Shown: positions 1 through 60,796 of the stretch, one piece after another | Position numbering within the stretch: position 1 is the stretch's first letter | How the letters are laid out: each line of letters starts with the position of its first letter | From: Octopus sinensis | Taxonomy: Eukaryota | Length of the DNA: 64,000 bases | Reading direction: 5' to 3' | Assembly (NCBI RefSeq): GCF_006345805.1 | Contig: NC_042998.1 | Location: 64,232,001-64,296,000, forward strand | Translations under genes and position numbers: made by a program | Notes under the pieces: model-generated | Told to the model about the DNA's origin: nothing | The model's input: the letters and a program-made list of their open reading frames with translations, nothing else | The model's database searches: none

Positions 1-423
1 AAATCCACTCAATCACACGCAGATTTTACCATAACGATAAATACGCGTGTGGTTCAATTGATACATCGACGTTATAATTCAAATGCCCCAACTAACAGCG
101 CGCCAAACTATCACGGAAAAACAAAACAGCATTTAGAATAAATGCAGCATAATTATAATTAATTAATAAGGTGAGGAAAAGATACTAATTTAATAGTATA
201 TTATTCAACACCAGTGGCCTAGTGCTCCGAGAAACTGGATTATTATAATATTTTATAACATATATAATATTTTTACAAATTAAATATAAGAGAGTGGTCA
301 CTATATGGCTCACTCTAGCACCAGTTAATCCAAAAGGTTTCAACACGAAAATACATGTTTCCATGAAAGTCAGTACGATTGTTAGCTCACACGGACAGGG
401 CAAATAAAAAATAAAACAAAATA

Positions 424-519
424 CAGATTATTTTGGGACAATTGTTTCGCTATTAATGAATTAAATGTAATTTTACTTACAAAAAAATCCATTTGTAGCT
501 CGTCGGCCAAAACTATCTG
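424..519 (-). ncRNA. Type-I hammerhead ribozyme (core mutated, CCGACGA)
   Basis: Minus strand: CAGAU-AG-UUUUGG CCGACGA GCUA...UAGC GAAAC AAUU GUC CCAAAA-UA-AUCUG. Stem I and stem II pair; stem III is minimal with a palindromic loop. Confidence 0.8.
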
Positions 520-956
520 GATGAAATCCACTCAATCACACGCCAGATTTTACCATAACGATAAATACGCGTGTGGTTCAATTGATTACATCCGACGTTA
601 TAATTCAATGCCCCAACTAACAGCGCGCCAAACTTTCACGGAAAACAAATACAGCATTTAGAAATAAATGCAGCATAATTATAATTAATTAATAAGGGTG
701 AGAGAAATAGATACTAATTTAATAGTATATCTATTCAACACCAGTGGCCTAGTGCTCCGAGAAACCTGGATTATTATAATATTTTATAACATATTATAAT
801 ATTTTTACAAAATAAATATAAGAGAGTGGTCACTATATGGCTCACTCTAGCACCAGTTAATCCAAAAGGTTTCAACCACGAAAATACATGTTTCCCATGA
901 AAGTCAGTACGATTGTTAGCTCACACGGACAGGGCAAATAAAAAATAACAAAAATA

Positions 957-1052
957 CAGATTATTTTGTGACAATTGTTTCGCTATTAATGAATTAAATG
1001 TAATTTTACTTACAAAAAAATCCATTTGTAGCACGTCAGCCAAAACTATCTG
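957..1052 (-). ncRNA. Type-I hammerhead ribozyme (core CUGACGU)
   Basis: Minus strand: UUUUGG CUGACGU GCUA...UAGC GAAAC AAUU GUC ACAAAA. The consensus with the copy at 424-519 gives canonical CUGACGA. Confidence 0.8.
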
Positions 1053-1515
1053 GATGAAATCCACTCAATCACACGCCAGATTTTACCATAACGATAAATA
1101 CGCGTGTGGTTCAATTGATTACATCCGACGTTATAATTCAAATGCCCCAACTAACAGCGCGCCAAACTTTCACGGAAAACAAATACAGCATTTAGAAATA
1201 AATGCAGCATAATTATAATTAATTAATAAGGGTGAGAGAAATAGATACTAATTTAATAGTATATCTATTCAACACCAAGTGGCCTAGTGCTCCGAGAAAC
1301 CTGGATTATTATAATATTTTATAACATATTATAATATTTTTACAAAATAAATATAAGAGAGTGGTCACTATATGGCTCACGTTATTTTTTATTTGCCCTG
1401 TCCGTGTGAGCTAACAATCGTACTGACTTTCATGGGAAACATGTATTTTCGTGGTTGAAACCTTTTGGATTAACTGGTGCTAGAGTGAGCCATATAGTGA
1501 CCACTCTCTTATATT

Positions 1516-1578
<63 letters not shown>

Positions 1579-1589
1579 GTGTGTGTGTG

Positions 1590-1730
1590 TGTGTGTTTAT
1601 ACGACGGCAAAACAGATCGATAGAATAAGTATTATGCTTACAAAGAATAAATCCAGGGGTCGATTTGTTCGACTATAGGCGGTGCTCCAGCATGGTCACA
1701 ATCAAATGACTGAAACAAATAATAGAAAAG
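1590..1730 (+). mobile_element. SINE 3' half (octopus-type, ...GGCGGTGCTCCAGCATGG...AATGACTGAAAC)
   Basis: The same tail occurs at 62270-62385 (+), 8385-8510 (-) and 44170-44290 (-). Confidence 0.7.
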
Positions 1731-2377
1731 TATATATTCACCAAGAATTTCTTAACTTTGGAAATTACGTTAATTGATGTTTTTATAGGAGGTATGAGAT
1801 TTCTATAAATCTTTTTAGGTACCTTAACATGTCTAGATTCATACAACTATTAATACTAGCACCCATACTGTCATAAAGAATAGAGCACCCCATATATATA
1901 GAACAGAGAGGAAGAAACCAATGAACTGTACACAGTCTGTTTACCCTATGCGAAAGGCGTCTCCGAAAAGATACAAATGATATGCGGCACATATGACATC
2001 AGGACAGTATTCAAGAGTAATACAACACTTCGCAAATATCTCCTTCGAGTAAAACCACCAATAGAAGAGAACAAGGCCAAAAACTGCGTGTACTCCATCT
2101 CATGCAGCTGCGGTAGGTTATACAAAGGCAAAACATGCTGCCCCCTCAAAATGGAGACCACCTCCCCCTGTGGAATGAAGATAAATTAATAGACAGGGAA
2201 CACCACTGGAAAGCACAACATTTTAAAGAAACAGCACATATGCTAGGACACAGCTATCTCCTGAGCAGAACATGTGCAGATATGAATAGCATATGGGAAC
2301 TGGTATTACATTATATATGGGAAGGATAGGAATATATTAGATTAAGAAGTCCTAAAATGCACTCCATAATTGCTTAC

Positions 2378-2505: not shown

Positions 2506-2551
2506 GACACCTGATGAAGTGTGAATGGTATATCAGGCGAAACGTTGTGTT
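2506..2551 (+). ncRNA. Minimal PLE-type hammerhead motif
   Basis: GACAC CUGAUGA A gugugaaugguauaucaggc GAAACGUU GUGUU. Stem I is GACAC/GUGUU, the palindrome AACGUU replaces stem III, and stem II is partly decayed. Confidence 0.7.
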
Positions 2552-2862
2552 AACTACAAACAAGATGATGACAAATATACGTCAAATGTAAATAATGTAA
2601 ATAATGTACATAATTTCTCATCACTTAAATATAGAAGAGTATCGCTGTTTCCTTCAATTTCGCAGCTGAGAATGAGAACAATGATGAAACTGCATCGACC
2701 ACGACACCAGGTTGCATATCCATCAGTGTGCAGCCGATGCAGAAAAGGAAGTTGTAAATATAAATAACTGTCATATAAATTATTGAAATCTCCGTTTTCC
2801 TTATCATTATTAATACTTTTAAGATCATTACATACTGTATGGAGATTATGCAGTCCTGAATA

Positions 2863-25284: not shown

Positions 25285-25789
25285 AATAGCTAGCAAGTTA
25301 TACACAAAGTAGACGTGAAAACATTTGTGTACAAAAGATTCAGTGTGTAACACCGAACATAATACCTCATTACTGTTTCAATGTAACAGCTATTAAGTGC
25401 CTAAAGAAATAGGATAAACGGATAGGTCAACATTTGTCAGAAGTCAATTATAAAAACAGTGAAAAGAATTTATTGTGTTCAACAATACAAAGTAAATATC
25501 ACACCATCGTTCTGAGGATCATCAGTAGAAATATTTAGTGAGATGATTTACACCTATTGTATACTCGACAGAATTAATTGGAAAAAATCCTTTAAGAGGT
25601 GATTCGTTTCGATTCATTATCCTATGCGTATGTTTATCTCATGCTCAGCTGTTTTAATAATTATTTTAGACTATGAATTAGAACCTACGCCACTGAAGAC
25701 AGATAGTTTTAATAAGCTTTCCTACAGTTGTATTATCTCTTTAGGCAAGCCAAAGAAATCTCCTTGTGCGTTGGATAAAAAAAAAACAA

Positions 25790-28175
25790 TAATAAAAACA
25801 GCGATGGACTTCTTTTGGATTCCAAAAGATGTTCAACGAATGTTCATGTCGTACTACGACAACCTGAGGATGAGATTTACAGCAGGAAAGTTCACAACGG
25901 AGTGGCAACGGCTTGAAATAGGTATTGCAGCCGGATTCACGATATCAGTCATCTTGTTCGTGCTAGTCATGGAAATGCTACTCAGATCTACAAACTGGGA
26001 GAAAGCTGTTACAAAGACACAATTAAGGGCTTTTATCGACGACGTAACTATATTATCGGAAAGTAGAGAAGTAGCAGGGGGAACGTTAGAGCGGTTGGAC
26101 GAACTGATAGGATGGGCCAAGATGAAATTCAAAGCCAAAAAATCTCGAAGCGTGGCTTTCGTGAAAGGAAGGCAAGAAGAAGTGAAATTCAGGAAGTGAA
26201 GACATACCAACGATGGTATAGAAACTTATTAAATGATAAGAAGCAAGGGAAAGAAACACACGAGTTAGTAGAACAAGGATTAAAGGTAATTGACAGAACA
26301 ACACTGCCAGGGAAATTCAAGTGTTGGATTCTGCAATTTGAGCTGTACCCAAGGATAATGTGGCCATTGCAACTGTACGAAATAGCCTCGAGTAGAGTAG
26401 AAAGGTAGGAGAAAAGATGCAGTGTGTTTATCAGAAAATGGCTCGGTCTGCCGAAACCACTGAATACAACTGCACTATATGGAAAATCCGTGCTGCAACT
26501 ACCAATAGCATCAATCGCCGAAGAATATAAGGCAGGAAAGGCAAGGACAGTAATGATGCTAAGGTATTCAAAAGATCAGAGCATTCGGGAAAATCCTCCA
26601 AAGGTACGAACAGGGAGGAAATCGAAGGCGGAAGAGGCAGTAAACAGTGCGATCGAAAAACTCAGGCACGCAGATATAGTCGGAGCGACGCAAGAAGCTA
26701 GAACCGGCCTAGGGTCGCAAAATGTCAGGCCATTTTGCAAGAGCAGTGTAAAAGAGATGAAAGAGGCAGTGGTATACGAAGTGAGAAAGGAGGGAGAAGA
26801 AAGGCGAAATGTACATTTGGTACAATGCAGTCAACAGGGACTTTGCCTGAGATGGGAGGAGTATGTGATCAACCACAGAATATCATGGAAGGAACTTTGA
26901 GCTTGGGAACAAACAAGAACATCCTTCCTGATCAAGTCTACCTTCAACGTTCTACGCTCACCGGCGAACTTAGTCCGGTGGAATTTAAAAACAACCGATG
27001 AGTGTAGATGCGGAGAGAAATCGACGGTTAAACATGTTCTGTCAAGTTGCAGACTAGCACTTGAAAGATATACTTGGCGCCATAATCAAGTCCTCGGCGT
27101 CATAAGCGCAGCACTCAAGGAAAAAATCGAGAGGTACAATAGGGGAGAGTACCCAAAATTAGAAAAGCGCAGGAAAATATACTTCCACAAGGGAAAAGGT
27201 TATAAAACCAGGCCTACAAATACAGTATTCGAGATGGACGAAAGATGGAAGGGATACTGGGAGGTGGCCACGGACTTGGAATGACAAGTAATATTTCCAC
27301 TAATAAAACCAACAAAAAAACCGGATTTAGTTCTATGGAACAGAGACCGGAGAATGGGAATTTTACTAGAAGTGACAGTACCTTGGGAAGAGAACATCGG
27401 CAATGCAGAGGACCGAAAGGAGAAGAGGTATGAAAAGCTAATCGAAGAATGCAGAGAACAGGGATGGAATGTGGAATATTATCACCTGGCAGTGGAGGCT
27501 AGAGGCTTCATTGAAAAGAAAATGACAACGCTTTTCAAAAGAAGATTTGTTTTTTCTAGACTCGAGCTGCGTAAACTAATAAGGAAAGTACAAGAGGCGG
27601 TCGAAAAAGTCAGCTTCTATATATGGCTGAAGCGGGAAGACCGAAAATGGCTTGAAAGTCATAAACACACCGACGGGAAATAAGATCATTAGGTGAGACA
27701 AGCTGAGTGACAGTTGACGGTCGTGTAGAAGAATTGCGGGCTAAAACTTCGCGCCTTCACTAGTCAGTTAAGGTGAGACAGTGTCACGTGACAACTTGCT
27801 TGGGCTGCCTGCTGGAGCCTTTGCGGCAGGTAATTAAAGGCAAAAGTTTGACAAGACAGTCAGTCCCTGGCTGACGCTCGCTGACGATACATCGAAGAGG
27901 TCAGGGAACAGAAGAAAGAAGAAGAAAGAAGATATGCACCCAACAACAGAACTGAAGACACCTAGGAAAGTGGGGACCCCGCCACGTCTAAACGGTAGAG
28001 AGGTAGGGGCCGAAACCGGACGTGGTTCCTCCTAATGATGTCTTGAGCTAACTGGATCCTATAAAGGATCTGTTGAGGTAGCGGACCACGAAATATGGTT
28101 GTAATTCCTATAGCAATCTAAGTGTAACTTAGTTGTAGAAATGATAACATTCCACCGATTTTGTTCTAACAAATG
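25790..28175 (+). mobile_element. 5'-truncated Hero-like RLE non-LTR retrotransposon (RT + CCHC + restriction-like endonuclease), pseudogenised
   Basis: WQRLEIGIAAGFTISVILF, AFIDDVT, KFKAKKSRS, LPGKFKCW, RKWLGLP, CRCG..KHVLSSC..RYTWRHNQVL, KPDLVLW..LLEVTVPWEE. Stops or frameshifts near 26195, 26406, 26898 and 27281. ORF ends at 27683, followed by a ~490-bp 3' UTR. Confidence 0.85.
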
Positions 28176-52054: not shown

Positions 52055-52099
52055 CATATTTGTGTAAATGTGTGTGGAATAATATTATGATTCATAATT

Positions 52100-53670
52100 A
52101 CCATACCATAAACCCTCTACTAATTTAATATATTAGAGCTAAAATAAGAGCTAATATATTAGCTCTTACAGTATTCACTGTAAAGCTATTACAGGGAATT
52201 TAGTTAAGAATATTTCACTTAGACTTTCTAGATTATCTGCTAATGTTGATAACTCCAACGATAAAGCCGACTTTTATAACTCAGCCATACATCTAGCGGG
52301 CTTTAACGAAACATTACCTATATTAACCCTATTGACATTAATTCTACCTCTATTAATCAGGACATGAAACCAATTCATAACGATATTAACCGTTTAAATT
52401 TTAATTCGAATAACAACACTAGATCGAGTAATGTAATTCTGCAGCCTAAGGGAAATAACTGTTCTTCTCTCACCCCTTTTTCGTTATAAAGGTACATCGA
52501 GGACTTTTAAAAGATAATTACACTAATAACAAGGTATGTCATAGAAAAACTGTTTAGTTGGTAATTCCATATTGTAAACAGATCAAATTTAACCTTCCTT
52601 ACCAGTTTTGTAAAGCTATAGATAAGAATTTCACCGAAAAATCATGATGCTATTCGGTTGTTGATTAACACCGAATCAAGATAGGGTTTTCTAACACTAA
52701 AAACATCTCCCAAATCATCTCTGCACATAATAATAAGTTGTTAAATACAAATACACTTAATGAAAATAGTAACATTGATGATATTAACACTAACCATTCA
52801 TTAAATAATAATAGCAACAATATTAGTATTTCTGATACAAATTCCAATCGCATTCGTTTCATTAGCAATAGTTCTAAGACTAGGAACTCTGTTTATCAAA
52901 GTAAAACTACTTCCGGTTCAGACGTCTTTACTTATATAGGTATTCCTTCTCAGTTCTCCGAAACAATATCTAAACATAACTAATCTAATCTAATCATTTA
53001 GACATATCAATAAACAGAACAATACTGGGCTGAGTAAATTAATCTGGTATCTGAAGGATCATAATAAACAGTTCGATTTGGAATGGAATATTGTATCTAA
53101 ATCATTTGCATATGATAAAGTGAAATATTTTTGCCCGCTCTCTAACGATGAACTTTATTTCATGCTGTTCTCAGAGAATCCTCCTGTTAACACGCTTCCA
53201 AGATTCAAGAATGCATTTATCGTTGCAACCTTTAGTAAAAACATACCTTAAGTTCATATCAGTGATTTCTACCAACCGGTAAAGTTCGACACTTAACTTA
53301 TATTTCACTCCCACTAAATATATCTATTTCCATGCCTTTAAACTTTATTCCTATTCACGTATCGCCCTATATTTCTCCACTTTCAATTTTCTTCTAATCT
53401 ATTTCTTCCTCCTCCCCTTTATATAAAATGCCTTTGACGTTGTATATATATAAGTTTTTTTTTATTATATATATGACGTACCAGTATATATGCAGTATAT
53501 ATATGTAGTAATCACATTCGGTTAAAACGTCTTATTTATGTGTTTTCTTTCTATTTCTTTCCCAGATGAGAAGATTGCATTGCATTTCATCATTTTCTTC
53601 CTTCTGGAATATCAATCGAAACATATATCGGAAGTATAAAGATTTGAATAACACCTGCGTTTAACTTCAT
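52100..53670 (+). mobile_element. Decayed Penelope-like element (linker + GIY-YIG + 3' HHR)
   Basis: NISQIISAHNNKLL, SVYQSK..DVFTYIG, NNTGLSKLIWYLKD..EWNIV..CPLSNDE. HHR-like motif in the 3' region. Confidence 0.75.
53558..53634 (+). ncRNA. Degenerate hammerhead at the PLE 3' end
   Basis: UUCC CAGAUGA gaa GAUUG...CAAUC GAAAC AUAU AUC GGAA. Two core substitutions. Confidence 0.5.
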
Positions 53671-58331: not shown

Positions 58332-58374
<43 letters not shown>

Positions 58375-58559
58375 TAAGCAATAAGGGTTTAGCAACGAAT
58401 TGCCTTACCACATACCGAATTTAGAAATAGCAGTCAAAGGGTTATAGCTATTTCTTCTACTAAAAAGGGAGATCTCAGTAAAAACAGCAATTGGAAGGCT
58501 GACACAAACAGGTAAGAGAGAATGAATTAACTGCAATCTATCAAACATTTTTAAAGTTA

Positions 58560-58666
58560 TCCACGGACGTACGTTTCGAAATCAAGTTTTTAGGAAAGCA
58601 TAAGAATTAAATATTAAATATTAAATAATTCTATCTTACCGAAACTTCTTTTCTCTTCAGCGTAGA
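58560..58666 (-). ncRNA. Type-I hammerhead ribozyme (canonical core) in the inverted arm
   Basis: UCUACG CUGAAGA GAAA-AG-AAGUUU...AAACUU-GA-UUUC GAAAC GUAC GUC CGUGGA. Confidence 0.88.
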
Positions 58667-59171
58667 ATACTATAATCATAAATTTAAAAATGTTTGATAG
58701 ATTGCAGTTAATTCATTCTCTCTTACCTGTTTGTGTCAGCCTTCCAATTGCTGTTTTTACTGAGATCTCCCTTTTTAGTAGAAGAAATAGCTATAACCCT
58801 TTGACTGCTATTTCTAAATTCGGTATGTGGTAAGGCAATTCGTTGCTAAACCCTTATTGCTTAGTATTACTTAAATTTTCCTCGAATGAGGCTTTTACAT
58901 GCCGAAGACTACTTGGTGTAATGATAATTATTCCAAATTAATTAATTTCACCCTTCATTATTACGGATAACCATATTGTATCTCAGTAGATGACCACAGC
59001 ATCTTGTTTTGGCTACACGCGGGTGGGGAGGGGCTGTTGACACAATCGTTTCATTCACAAATTTGAATTCGGTGATACTAGTTGCGGATTCTGGCTCGCT
59101 CTGATACTGAGTTGAGTTGGTGCCTCCTAGTATCTCAAAATTCAATATATAATCATTTATGATTATAGTAT

Positions 59172-59278
59172 TCTACGCTGAAGAGAAAAGAAGTTTCGGT
59201 AAGATAGAATTATTTAATATTTAATATTTAATTCTTATGCTTTCCTAAAAACTTGATTTCGAAATGTACGTCCGTGGA
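59172..59278 (+). ncRNA. Type-I hammerhead ribozyme (GAAAU variant)
   Basis: As at 58560-58666 but with GAAAU GUAC GUC. Predicted cleavage after 59272. Confidence 0.82.
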
Positions 59279-59772
59279 TAACTTTAAAAATGTTTGATAG
59301 ATTGCAGTTAATTCATTCTCTCTTACCTGTTTGTGTCAGCCTTCCAATTGCTGTTTTTACTGAGATCTCCCTTTTTAGTAGAAGAAATAGCTATAACCCT
59401 TTGACTGCTATTTCTAAATTCGGTATGTGGTAAGGCAATTCGTTGCTAAACCCTTATTGCTTAGTATTACTTAAATTTTCCTCGAATGAGGCTTTTACAT
59501 GCCGAAGACTACTTGGTGTAATTGATAATTATTCCAAATTAATTAATTTCACCCTTCATTATTACGGATAACCATATTGTATCTCAGTAGATGACCACAG
59601 CATCTTGTTTTGGCTACACGCGGGTGGGGAGGGGCTGTTGACACAATCGTTTCATTCACAAATTTGAATTCGGTGATACTAGTTGCGGATTCTGGCTCGC
59701 TCTGATACTGAGTTGAGTTGGTGCCTCCTAGTATCTCAAAATTCAATATATAATCATTTATGATTATAGTAT

Positions 59773-59879
59773 TCTACGCTGAAGAGAAAAGAAGTTTCGG
59801 TAAGATAGAATTATTTAATATTTAATATTTAATTCTTATGCTTTCCTAAAAACTTGATTTCGAAATGTACGTCCGTGGA
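59773..59879 (+). ncRNA. Type-I hammerhead ribozyme (GAAAU variant)
   Basis: Same as 59172-59278. Predicted cleavage after 59873. Confidence 0.82.
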
Positions 59880-60373
59880 TAACTTTAAAAATGTTTGATA
59901 GATTGCAGTTAATTCATTCTCTCTTACCTGTTTGTGTCAGCCTTCCAATTGCTGTTTTTACTGAGATCTCCCTTTTTAGTAGAAGAAATAGCTATAACCC
60001 TTTGACTGCTATTTCTAAATTCGGTATGTGGTAAGGCAATTCGTTGCTAAACCCTTATTGCTTAGTATTACTTAAATTTTCCTCGAATGAGGCTTTTACA
60101 TGCCGAAGACTACTTGGTGTAATTGATAATTATTCCAAATTAATTAATTTCACCCTTCATTATTACGGATAACCATATTTTATCTCAGTAGATGACCACA
60201 GCATCTTGTTTTGGCTACACGCGGGTGGGAAGGGGCTGTTGACACAATCGTTTCATTCACAAATTTGAATTCGGTGATACTAGTTGCGGATTCTGGCTCG
60301 CTCTGATACTGAGTTGAGTTGGTGCCTCCTAGTATCTCAAAATTCAATATATAATCATTTATGATTATAGTAT

Positions 60374-60480
60374 TCTACGCTGAAGAGAAAAGAAGTTTCG
60401 GTAAGATAGAATTATTTAATATTTAATATTTAATTCTTATGCTTTCCTAAAAACTTGATTTCGAAACGTACGTCCGTGGA
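60374..60480 (+). ncRNA. Type-I hammerhead ribozyme (canonical core)
   Basis: CUGAAGA at 60380-60386; GAAAC GUAC GUC at 60463-60474; stem I UCUACG/CGUGGA. Confidence 0.88.
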
Positions 60481-60796
60481 TAACTTTAAAAATGTTTGAT
60501 AGATTGCAGTTAATTCATTCTCTCTTACCTGTTTGTGTCAGCCTTCCAATTGCTGTTTTTACTGAGATCTCCCTTTTTAGTAGAAGAAATAGCTATAACC
60601 CTTTGACTGCTATTTCTAAATTCGGTATGTGGTAAGGCAATTCGTTGCTAAACCCTTATTGCTTAGTATTACTTAAATTTTCCTCGAATGAGGCTTTTAC
60701 ATGCCGAAGACTACTTGGTGTAATTGATAATTATTCCAAATTAATTAATTTCACCCTTCATTATTACGGATAACTATATATATATATATATATATA

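Follow-up and report, generated by a model that had tools for sequence, protein, structure and literature searches.

Arrays of a young hammerhead retrozyme in an octopus genome end once at each of two fixed internal sites

The tandem repeat that opens the window (the whole 64,000-nt stretch of DNA analysed here, G000:C2:64232001-64296000 of a 2.7-Gb assembly) is a non-LTR retrozyme: non-coding, young and spread genome-wide. In its two-armed arrays the arms diverge, and with near-strict regularity one arm ends at one fixed internal site (site A) and the other at a second (site B). Both arms carry a common haplotype, their truncated inner ends are mostly joined bluntly, and the hammerhead ribozyme is conserved at the level of the RNA. 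We think it probable that each array stems from one insertion, in which a pair of reverse transcriptase/endonuclease proteins of a Penelope-like element (PLE) cut the target and, from each of its two strands, copied a single and probably circular RNA template. What is new is the anatomy of the insertions. The retrozyme class has been published, and so have the idea of a PLE helper, that of a circular template, the inverted copy, the tail at one end and the pair of start sites; the value of the arrays lies mainly in the mechanistic evidence that they hold.

The array at the start of the window

Self-comparison provided a full unit at 524..1056 (minus strand) that served as a ruler, ruler position 1 being window position 1056. 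Together with a full unit of 523 nt at 1..523 (minus strand) and a 5'-truncated unit at 1057..1380 (minus strand; ruler 212-533 by alignment), which forms the inner end of the long arm, it makes up ~2.6 units of 95-97% mutual identity. At 1380..1381 the alignment places a blunt inversion junction without overlap (0 nt), where ruler 212 meets ruler 108. The short inverted arm that follows (1381..1521, plus strand; ruler 108-248) mirrors 799-949, contains a predicted hairpin, the A hairpin, at 1482-1507 (plus strand), and terminates at site A. It adjoins the (TA)n microsatellite that was the target (1522..1569, by repeat composition), which masks any target-site duplication. Within the long arm, an internal copy of the hairpin of the B end (GGUG...CACC) lies with site B (ruler 377) at 1214..1280 (minus strand), and further copies lie at 680 and 154. 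Alignment and motif thus bear out the preliminary description, which had been made from the letters of the window alone and had proposed ~2.6 tandem copies with a minus-strand hammerhead and an inverted arm running to (TA)n. Following its suggestion to extend the sequence leftwards, we find that the array reaches 1,413 nt beyond the window start, to G000:C2:64230588, and that its far end lies at the second fixed site, site B, again beside (TA)n; the whole array comprises ~5.2 units. The ~10 one-base losses of the unit at 1..523 are probably assembly errors, as had been suspected.

The array has no coding capacity, stop-to-stop frames of at least 120 aa being absent from 1-1520, and the GC fraction is 0.325 over window 1-2000 (<50%). 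To its right, a PLE-like fragment at 1902-2190 (plus strand) is followed by a small hammerhead motif at ~2506-2556 (plus strand). The fragment, for which a Pfam search returned no match, we take to be the border of the RT thumb and the GIY-YIG domain of a Poseidon-type PLE; fragment and motif form a separate, neighbouring element. Elsewhere in the window, 25603-27683 (plus strand) contains LINE-type reading frames that are broken and match RVT_1.

A type I hammerhead with a long stem II

Both full units of the window carry a type I hammerhead motif on the minus strand. In the ruler unit it occupies 957..1052, with the core CUGACGU (A9 to U) at 1039-1033, an extended stem II at 1032-982, GAAAC-AAUU-GUC with a palindromic stem III at 981-970 and a predicted cut between 970 and 969; the first pair of stem I, beside the cut, is broken in this unit (524-1056; C1.1 to A). 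In the other it occupies 424..519, with the core CCGACGA (U4 to C) at 506-500 and a predicted cut after 437. Predicted folding yields stems I and II on the minus strand. Stem II (GCUA/UAGC) is lengthened by an internal loop and two more helices to ~52 nt, and this internal loop and longer helix take the position of loop 2. Stem III has just 2-3 bp and is palindromic, as has been described for animal hammerheads that act as dimers (PMC4209133). The Rfam hammerhead models give no match, either at the gathering score or at E<=10, likely because of the extension of stem II, and a motif search that allows for the long stem II returns 6,892 matches in the genome versus 39 in a control.

Of 173 copies, drawn from 39 arrays, 155 match the canonical core CUGANGA/GAAA/NUH in full; both window copies deviate from it, in agreement with the two core changes and the canonical consensus given in the preliminary description. 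Nor are the stems unconserved across copies, the other outcome that would have spoken against a hammerhead: when the 533-nt family is compared with its relatives, among them a 494-nt family, 11 of 54 named pairs differ by compensatory changes, some of them in stem I and in the helix that encloses site A, and most of these changes are one event between the 533- and 494-nt families. Within the hammerhead they affect three pairs of stem I and one of stem II, and slid controls score far lower; a further family of 601 nt shows a swap of U-A and C-G in stem I. A natural unit folded as a circle is predicted to be highly paired, with z=-8.5 in the sense versus -5.3 in the antisense orientation (25 shuffles). 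By core, helices and covariation the element is a type I hammerhead, with self-cleavage predicted.

The core changes alternate along the window array: units 2 and 4 carry U4C, units 3 and 5 carry A9U together with the broken first pair of stem I, and the last unit has a canonical core with neither U4C nor A9U. A later duplication of two units, which may be real or made by the assembly, fits this pattern best. A dimeric circle as the source of the alternating variants was rejected, since the last unit spans ruler 24 and 88 and carries neither change. The window copies are unusual, mutated ones whose ribozymes are probably impaired.

Family size and relatives

The preliminary description had named a 533-nt monomer. 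The repeat unit is real, but in the best-matching copies it measures 535-536 nt, the window unit probably lacking some homopolymer bases. A search with the unit returned 910 candidates, of which 40 were scored, and gave 249 matches, with 93-100% identity among the matches listed. One 20-mer of the core, which represents roughly half of the variants, has 554 exact matches in the genome versus 0 in the control, and we estimate the family at ~1,000 units genome-wide. Change private to single arrays amounts to ~0.2% per site, which makes the arrays very young.

Relatives exist at 85-95% identity, with the 494-nt family at about 67-80%, and the genome holds at least four families of hammerhead arrays; together with the 6,892 motif matches this justifies the earlier surmise of a large and diverse class. 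A sister array, of the 601-nt retrozyme, lies in the window itself at 58371..60779 (plus strand), with two arms, the A-plus-B layout and a homologous B hairpin. The two families had been described as distinct in sequence and alike in layout: the common layout holds, down to the rule for the two ends (9 of 10 arrays), whereas the distinctness is incomplete in that the hairpin of the B end is common to both. In the 494-nt relatives (L166-L179; 1,550 candidates), the hammerhead begins stem II with a U-U pair and has the triplet GUU, as does HHR_Amex2 of the axolotl (PMC7229834). One further two-armed tandem family, at L140:448-3716, has a period of ~485 nt and a long-stem-II hammerhead of its own, and each of its units matches the model of the B hairpin weakly (E 1-3).

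Two-armed insertions end once at site A and once at site B

To characterize the insertions we fetched 75 stretches (L031-L105), the first 39 chosen by similarity to the window copy and the next 36 by position among the matches to one core variant. With duplicates dropped (both L053 copies, the second L072 copy and L074) and L105 merged with L069, 72 arrays remained, a sample of the several hundred in the genome. The arrays at L053/L055, L072 and L073/L074 are duplicated together with their flanks and are probably haplotype or segmental duplicates in the assembly.

Fifty arrays have two arms and 22 have one, and every two-armed array is divergent, with the 3' ends of the ribozyme strand facing outwards. 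The outer ends map to one of two places, ruler ~248 (site A) or ruler 377 (site B), which are 129 nt apart, and a TA-rich flank adjoins 119 of 125 A or B ends (duplicates included). Among the 47 two-armed arrays that can be scored, 46 have one A and one B end (p=3e-13 versus independent choice), L033 being counted as B though its B end has a small deletion. The exceptions are a single AA array (L045, on an unplaced contig and with mixed haplotypes) and three arrays with an off-site end; BB arrays number 0. Nine one-armed arrays end at A and 13 at B, and as either site can be the sole end, both function as insertion ends. The lengths of the two arms are alike, the B arm being the longer in 23 of 46 arrays.

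The same rule governs 9 of 10 two-armed arrays of the 601-nt family and 6 of 6 of the 494-nt family, and it extends to the coding PLEs of the genome, where 7 of 7 two-armed Hydra-type and 5 of 5 two-armed Neptune-type insertions follow it. The tail, i.e. the distance between the sites, is 129 nt in the 533-nt family, 105-116 nt in the sister families, ~155 nt in Hydra-type and ~33 nt in Neptune-type elements. A hairpin lies 10-20 nt before each end of the retrozyme, A as well as B; that of B is homologous among the 533-, 494- and 601-nt families, and its motif occurs 6,907 times in the genome versus 202 times in the control. A clustering of inner ends was apparent in the first 39 arrays and faded at 75 loci.

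Contigs of putative RNA runs and the A-to-G skew of variants

In contigs from sequencing runs that we guess to be RNA, changes of A>G or T>C account for 69 of 73 variant places in run X1 and for 21 of 33 in run X6, compared with 6 of 23 in contigs of run X15, which by its size is probably DNA. Individual contigs accumulate up to 22 changes in 143 nt, a pattern that resembles hyper-editing of the A-to-I type by ADAR, provided that X1 and X6 are indeed RNA, and that on the same proviso indicates that the arrays are transcribed. Some X1 and X6 contigs continue into the (TA)n flanks, and both polarities of editing are present, which makes hairpins formed by the paired arms of read-through transcripts a likely editing substrate; instead of circles, a good part of the RNA may represent read-through from the host. 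In run X7, from another of the coded organisms (C), a 565-nt contig, 535 nt plus a 30-nt overlap, forms an unbranched closed cycle of one haplotype at depth 15, which could come from a circle, from a uniform array or from carried-over material. The A9U base of the window is absent from the X15 contigs, although contigs drop rare variants.

A related skew exists in the genome. Array-fixed variants, read on the ribozyme strand and polarised with older relatives, are A>G in 21 of 57 cases and T>C in 9 (p=0.0025), and those of the 601-nt family are A>G in 9 of 21 and T>C in 4 (p=0.05). A preceding G is found at 1 of 32 such inherited variant sites, where 17% would be expected (p=0.02). Variants present on both arms of Neptune insertions skew the opposite way, with 13 T>C and 7 A>G. 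Since T>C is depleted in stems (2/125 versus 7/83, p=0.03), the A>G skew is due in part to selection on the fold, and recurrence of variants across subfamilies is 5/23 versus 2/34 (p=0.11); editing is not established as the sole cause. Singleton variants, probably mostly assembly errors, make a poor control. We give the inheritance of edits by retrozyme copies about an even chance.

Probably one template per insertion

The two arms of an array agree at 168 of 192 variant columns, compared with a mean of 14% and a maximum of 31% in shuffled pairs, and 73 arrays carry 45 haplotypes. For variants shared between arrays, 219 of 303 cases show the variant in all units. Among those private to one array, 22 occur in all covering units (9 of them span both arms), 21 in subsets of units and 179 as singletons. 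The uniformity of private and shared variants across units points to a bottleneck at the monomer combined with an output of multimers, while the 21 subset variants indicate units added after insertion by duplication at the level of the DNA (or of the assembly). The predicted cut site is crossed by 104 of 116 arms, on both arms in 33 of 45 arrays, and none of 96 inner ends lies at it. A monomer bottleneck with multimeric output is expected from a circular template and suggests one, though an uncut multimer could also produce it; that the template was a monomer circle is the reading we favour, with some reserve.

The uncut template deserves the closest attention among the alternatives. According to it, a PLE primed twice on a linear, multimeric transcript of the parent array, the ribozyme being a passenger or serving to free the RNA from read-through. 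In vitro, hammerhead cleavage was dispensable for the Poseidon element PAc, and uncut RNA was the main template (Frangieh 2024, PMC11167929). RNA contigs that extend into the flanks, arms that cross the cut site and the lack of inner ends there are all compatible with such a transcript. A multimeric template, however, would be expected to transmit patterns specific to individual units, whereas the new variants of single arrays are uniform across units and across both arms. Families 65-80% alike have moreover retained the ribozyme core and stems, with compensatory changes, and the closed-cycle contig of run X7 also argues against an uncut template, which we consider unlikely.

Probable paired priming at two sites

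With the circle retained as the preferred template, the steps leading to an array might be as follows. The transcript of an existing array would cleave itself into ~535-nt monomers, which a host ligase would circularise, as in the known class. A PLE protein acting in trans, probably as a dimer, would bind the hairpin just 5' of A and the hairpin just 5' of B; the pair would nick both strands of a (TA)n target, and each protomer would prime on one strand and start at its own site. Each enzyme would then circle the template, with the number of turns varying, and so generate multimeric arms, and the two products would be joined by their 5'-truncated ends. This last outcome is observed, the joints being mostly blunt, as are the unit duplications and point mutations that would follow insertion, as at the window locus. 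We infer the enzymology of priming at A and B by analogy with PAc, whose protein nicks and extends both strands and starts at two internal sites, which define the tail; a dimeric state is predicted for it (Frangieh 2024, PMC11167929). The same study saw in vitro no difference between strands in the start site, which counts against twin priming. Taking all the evidence together, we nevertheless regard it as a good deal more probable than not that one template was primed twice, at A and at B.

One end of each kind would likewise be predicted if a single enzyme were at work, with one end being the start of reverse transcription and the other arising by endonuclease resolution of a DNA intermediate, and the PLE tail has been called most likely a product of endonuclease-mediated resolution (Craig 2021, PMC8557442). 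Since A and B each occur as the sole 3' end, neither type of arm is the longer, a conserved RNA hairpin precedes both ends and both tail borders have been mapped as starts of reverse transcription (Frangieh 2024, PMC11167929), we hold this route to be improbable.

The inverted arm could also have arisen by fold-back or self-priming, as has been proposed for the head-to-head repeats of PLEs (Arkhipova 2013, PMC3846280). Near-mirror junctions, with inner ends no more than 20 nt apart, are indeed seen in 6 of 48 cases, one of them with a 6-nt palindrome (L082), but this is no more than chance provides (p=0.16). Most junctions unite unrelated positions with an overlap of 0-3 nt, close to the chance distribution in the 33 of 50 that are resolvable; the other 17 have a negative overlap, mostly where the ruler, compared by exact match, is unlike the haplotype of the locus. 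Overlaps of at least 3 nt occur at 6 of 33 junctions versus 7% expected, a mild excess at most. Fold-back would furthermore leave both the other fixed site of the second arm and the equal arm lengths unexplained, and it has, in our view, slightly less chance still of being correct than endonuclease resolution.

Spread of an ordinary satellite through DNA recombination, or an artefact of the assembly, would account for the visible unit duplications (the window array included), the many homopolymer errors and the duplicated loci, but is very improbable: on many chromosomes the 3' ends are fixed at (TA)n and the 5' ends vary, the layout is identical to that of PLEs, covariation is seen at the RNA level, the variant spectrum is strand-biased and the repeat is present in runs from four coded organisms.

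Coding Penelope-like elements and the putative helper

Two types of coding PLE target (TA)n in this genome. The Neptune-type family (L158-L165 and L132:123-2452) has 775-aa open frames and 16,766 candidates, many of them 99% identical, and is very young and likely still active; read by eye, its 3' UTR holds a variant ribozyme with a short stem II and a CCGAAGA core. The Hydra-type group (L146-L157) has 16,464 candidates, ~155-nt tails, an asparagine-rich linker and hammerheads with a long stem II, many with GUA cleavage triplets. Its representative L148 encodes a 906-aa frame (P0002) with DKT, without CCHH, and with CxxC and CxH around E and N; the linker motif CxCX5C was not seen in this protein. 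The putative placement of L148 in the Hydra clade, of which few families are reported outside cnidarians, follows the motifs of Craig 2021 (PMC8557442) and not a tree. An exact sequence look-up of both PLE proteins gave no match. A decayed Hydra-type PLE lies in the window at 52089-53644, with protein fragments 43-58% identical to P0002 and, at 53548-53644, a long-stem-II hammerhead (E 4e-5). Other PLE fragments in the genome are 30-50% identical.

Several searches were made for a link between the retrozyme and these elements. DNA comparison of the 533-nt unit with the examined Hydra and Neptune pLTRs gave no match, the covariance model of the Hydra hammerhead did not match the 533- or 601-nt ribozymes, and that of the B hairpin found none at Hydra or Neptune ends in 31 loci, though one of these models (R1) had only 10 base pairs and its miss is therefore weak. 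Among 20 sampled copies of the B hairpin none is joined to a PLE reading frame, and at 3 of these loci unrelated Neptune-like fragments lie nearby. That a PLE mobilises the retrozyme seems to us very probable. As to which, our judgement leans tentatively towards the Hydra type, at somewhat under an even chance, with a Neptune-type helper possible though unlikely and some other PLE a little less likely than that.

Comparison with known systems

Penelope-like elements are the closest relatives of telomerase. The link between retrozymes and PLEs had previously rested on co-occurrence and on similarity to pLTRs; here, dozens of very young arrays follow a near-strict rule that favours paired priming over self-priming. 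This touches on the origin of tandem and inverted PLE insertions, which has been named as an open problem (Craig 2021, PMC8557442). The common B hairpin is a candidate for the minimal cis signal of mobilisation in trans, of use in work on RNA-templated insertion. A large supply of dsRNA would come from the ~6,900 long-stem-II hammerhead motifs missed by Rfam and from the numerous perfect inverted repeats, and if edits are inherited via retrozyme RNAs, RNA editing would shape genomic sequence. On a wider and rather doubtful reading, the arrays would be the natural record of a dimeric enzyme that grips one RNA circle at two hairpins and performs two rolling-circle reverse transcriptions on it, one from each target strand, and the circles a protein-free, viroid-like, long-lived lineage that has no surviving parent and evolves partly through A-to-I edits written into the genome.

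In being tandem, non-coding, low in GC and dispersed, and in that every unit has a type I hammerhead, the 533-nt family resembles the non-LTR retrozymes of animals, for which a circular RNA template and a PLE helper have been proposed (Cervera & de la Pena 2020, PMC7229834; Li, Clavereau & Pollet 2026, bioRxiv 10.64898/2026.07.22.740005). Its 535 nt fall within the 51-972 bp range of Li 2026 and above the 150-450 bp of PMC7229834, and its extended stem II, ~52 nt long and missed by Rfam, is a further difference. A parent pLTR has been reported for 24 of 57 Xenopus families, in contrast to none here among the PLE types sampled, and we seem to be dealing with an independent lineage of long standing. 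The consulted passages of these two studies describe neither inverted arms nor fixed internal ends nor (TA)n targeting, and the word 'inverted' is absent from PMC7229834. Full-text searches of an open-access collection, which lacks most subscription papers, turned up no statement of paired A/B priming on one template, inverted retrozyme arms or inherited retrozyme edits.

The non-autonomous Chlamys elements, e.g. MRC1, share the head-to-tail multicopy insertions; unlike the 533-nt retrozyme, they resemble autonomous families at the 3' end, and they mostly lack canonical hammerheads (Craig 2021, PMC8557442). Like endonuclease-bearing PLEs, the retrozyme has a head-to-head inverted, 5'-truncated copy and a one-ended tail (Arkhipova 2013, PMC3846280; Craig 2021, PMC8557442), a hammerhead near the end and a (TA)n target, as in the Hydra, Neptune and Naiad clades, and it shares with Poseidon PAc the two internal start sites (Frangieh 2024, PMC11167929). 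It differs from them in having no reading frame, in that both arms are multimers, in a tail of 129 nt versus the 30-40 bp reported for PLEs and in mostly non-palindromic junctions, a palindrome at the inverted junction being frequent and non-defining in PLEs (Arkhipova 2013, PMC3846280). Neither sequence nor covariance models link the 533-nt unit significantly to the Hydra-clade PLE L148 of the same genome; the two are alike in their long-stem-II hammerhead, their (TA)n target, their long tail, their ends, one of each kind, and the hairpin ahead of each end, which in L148 lies at ~10 nt.
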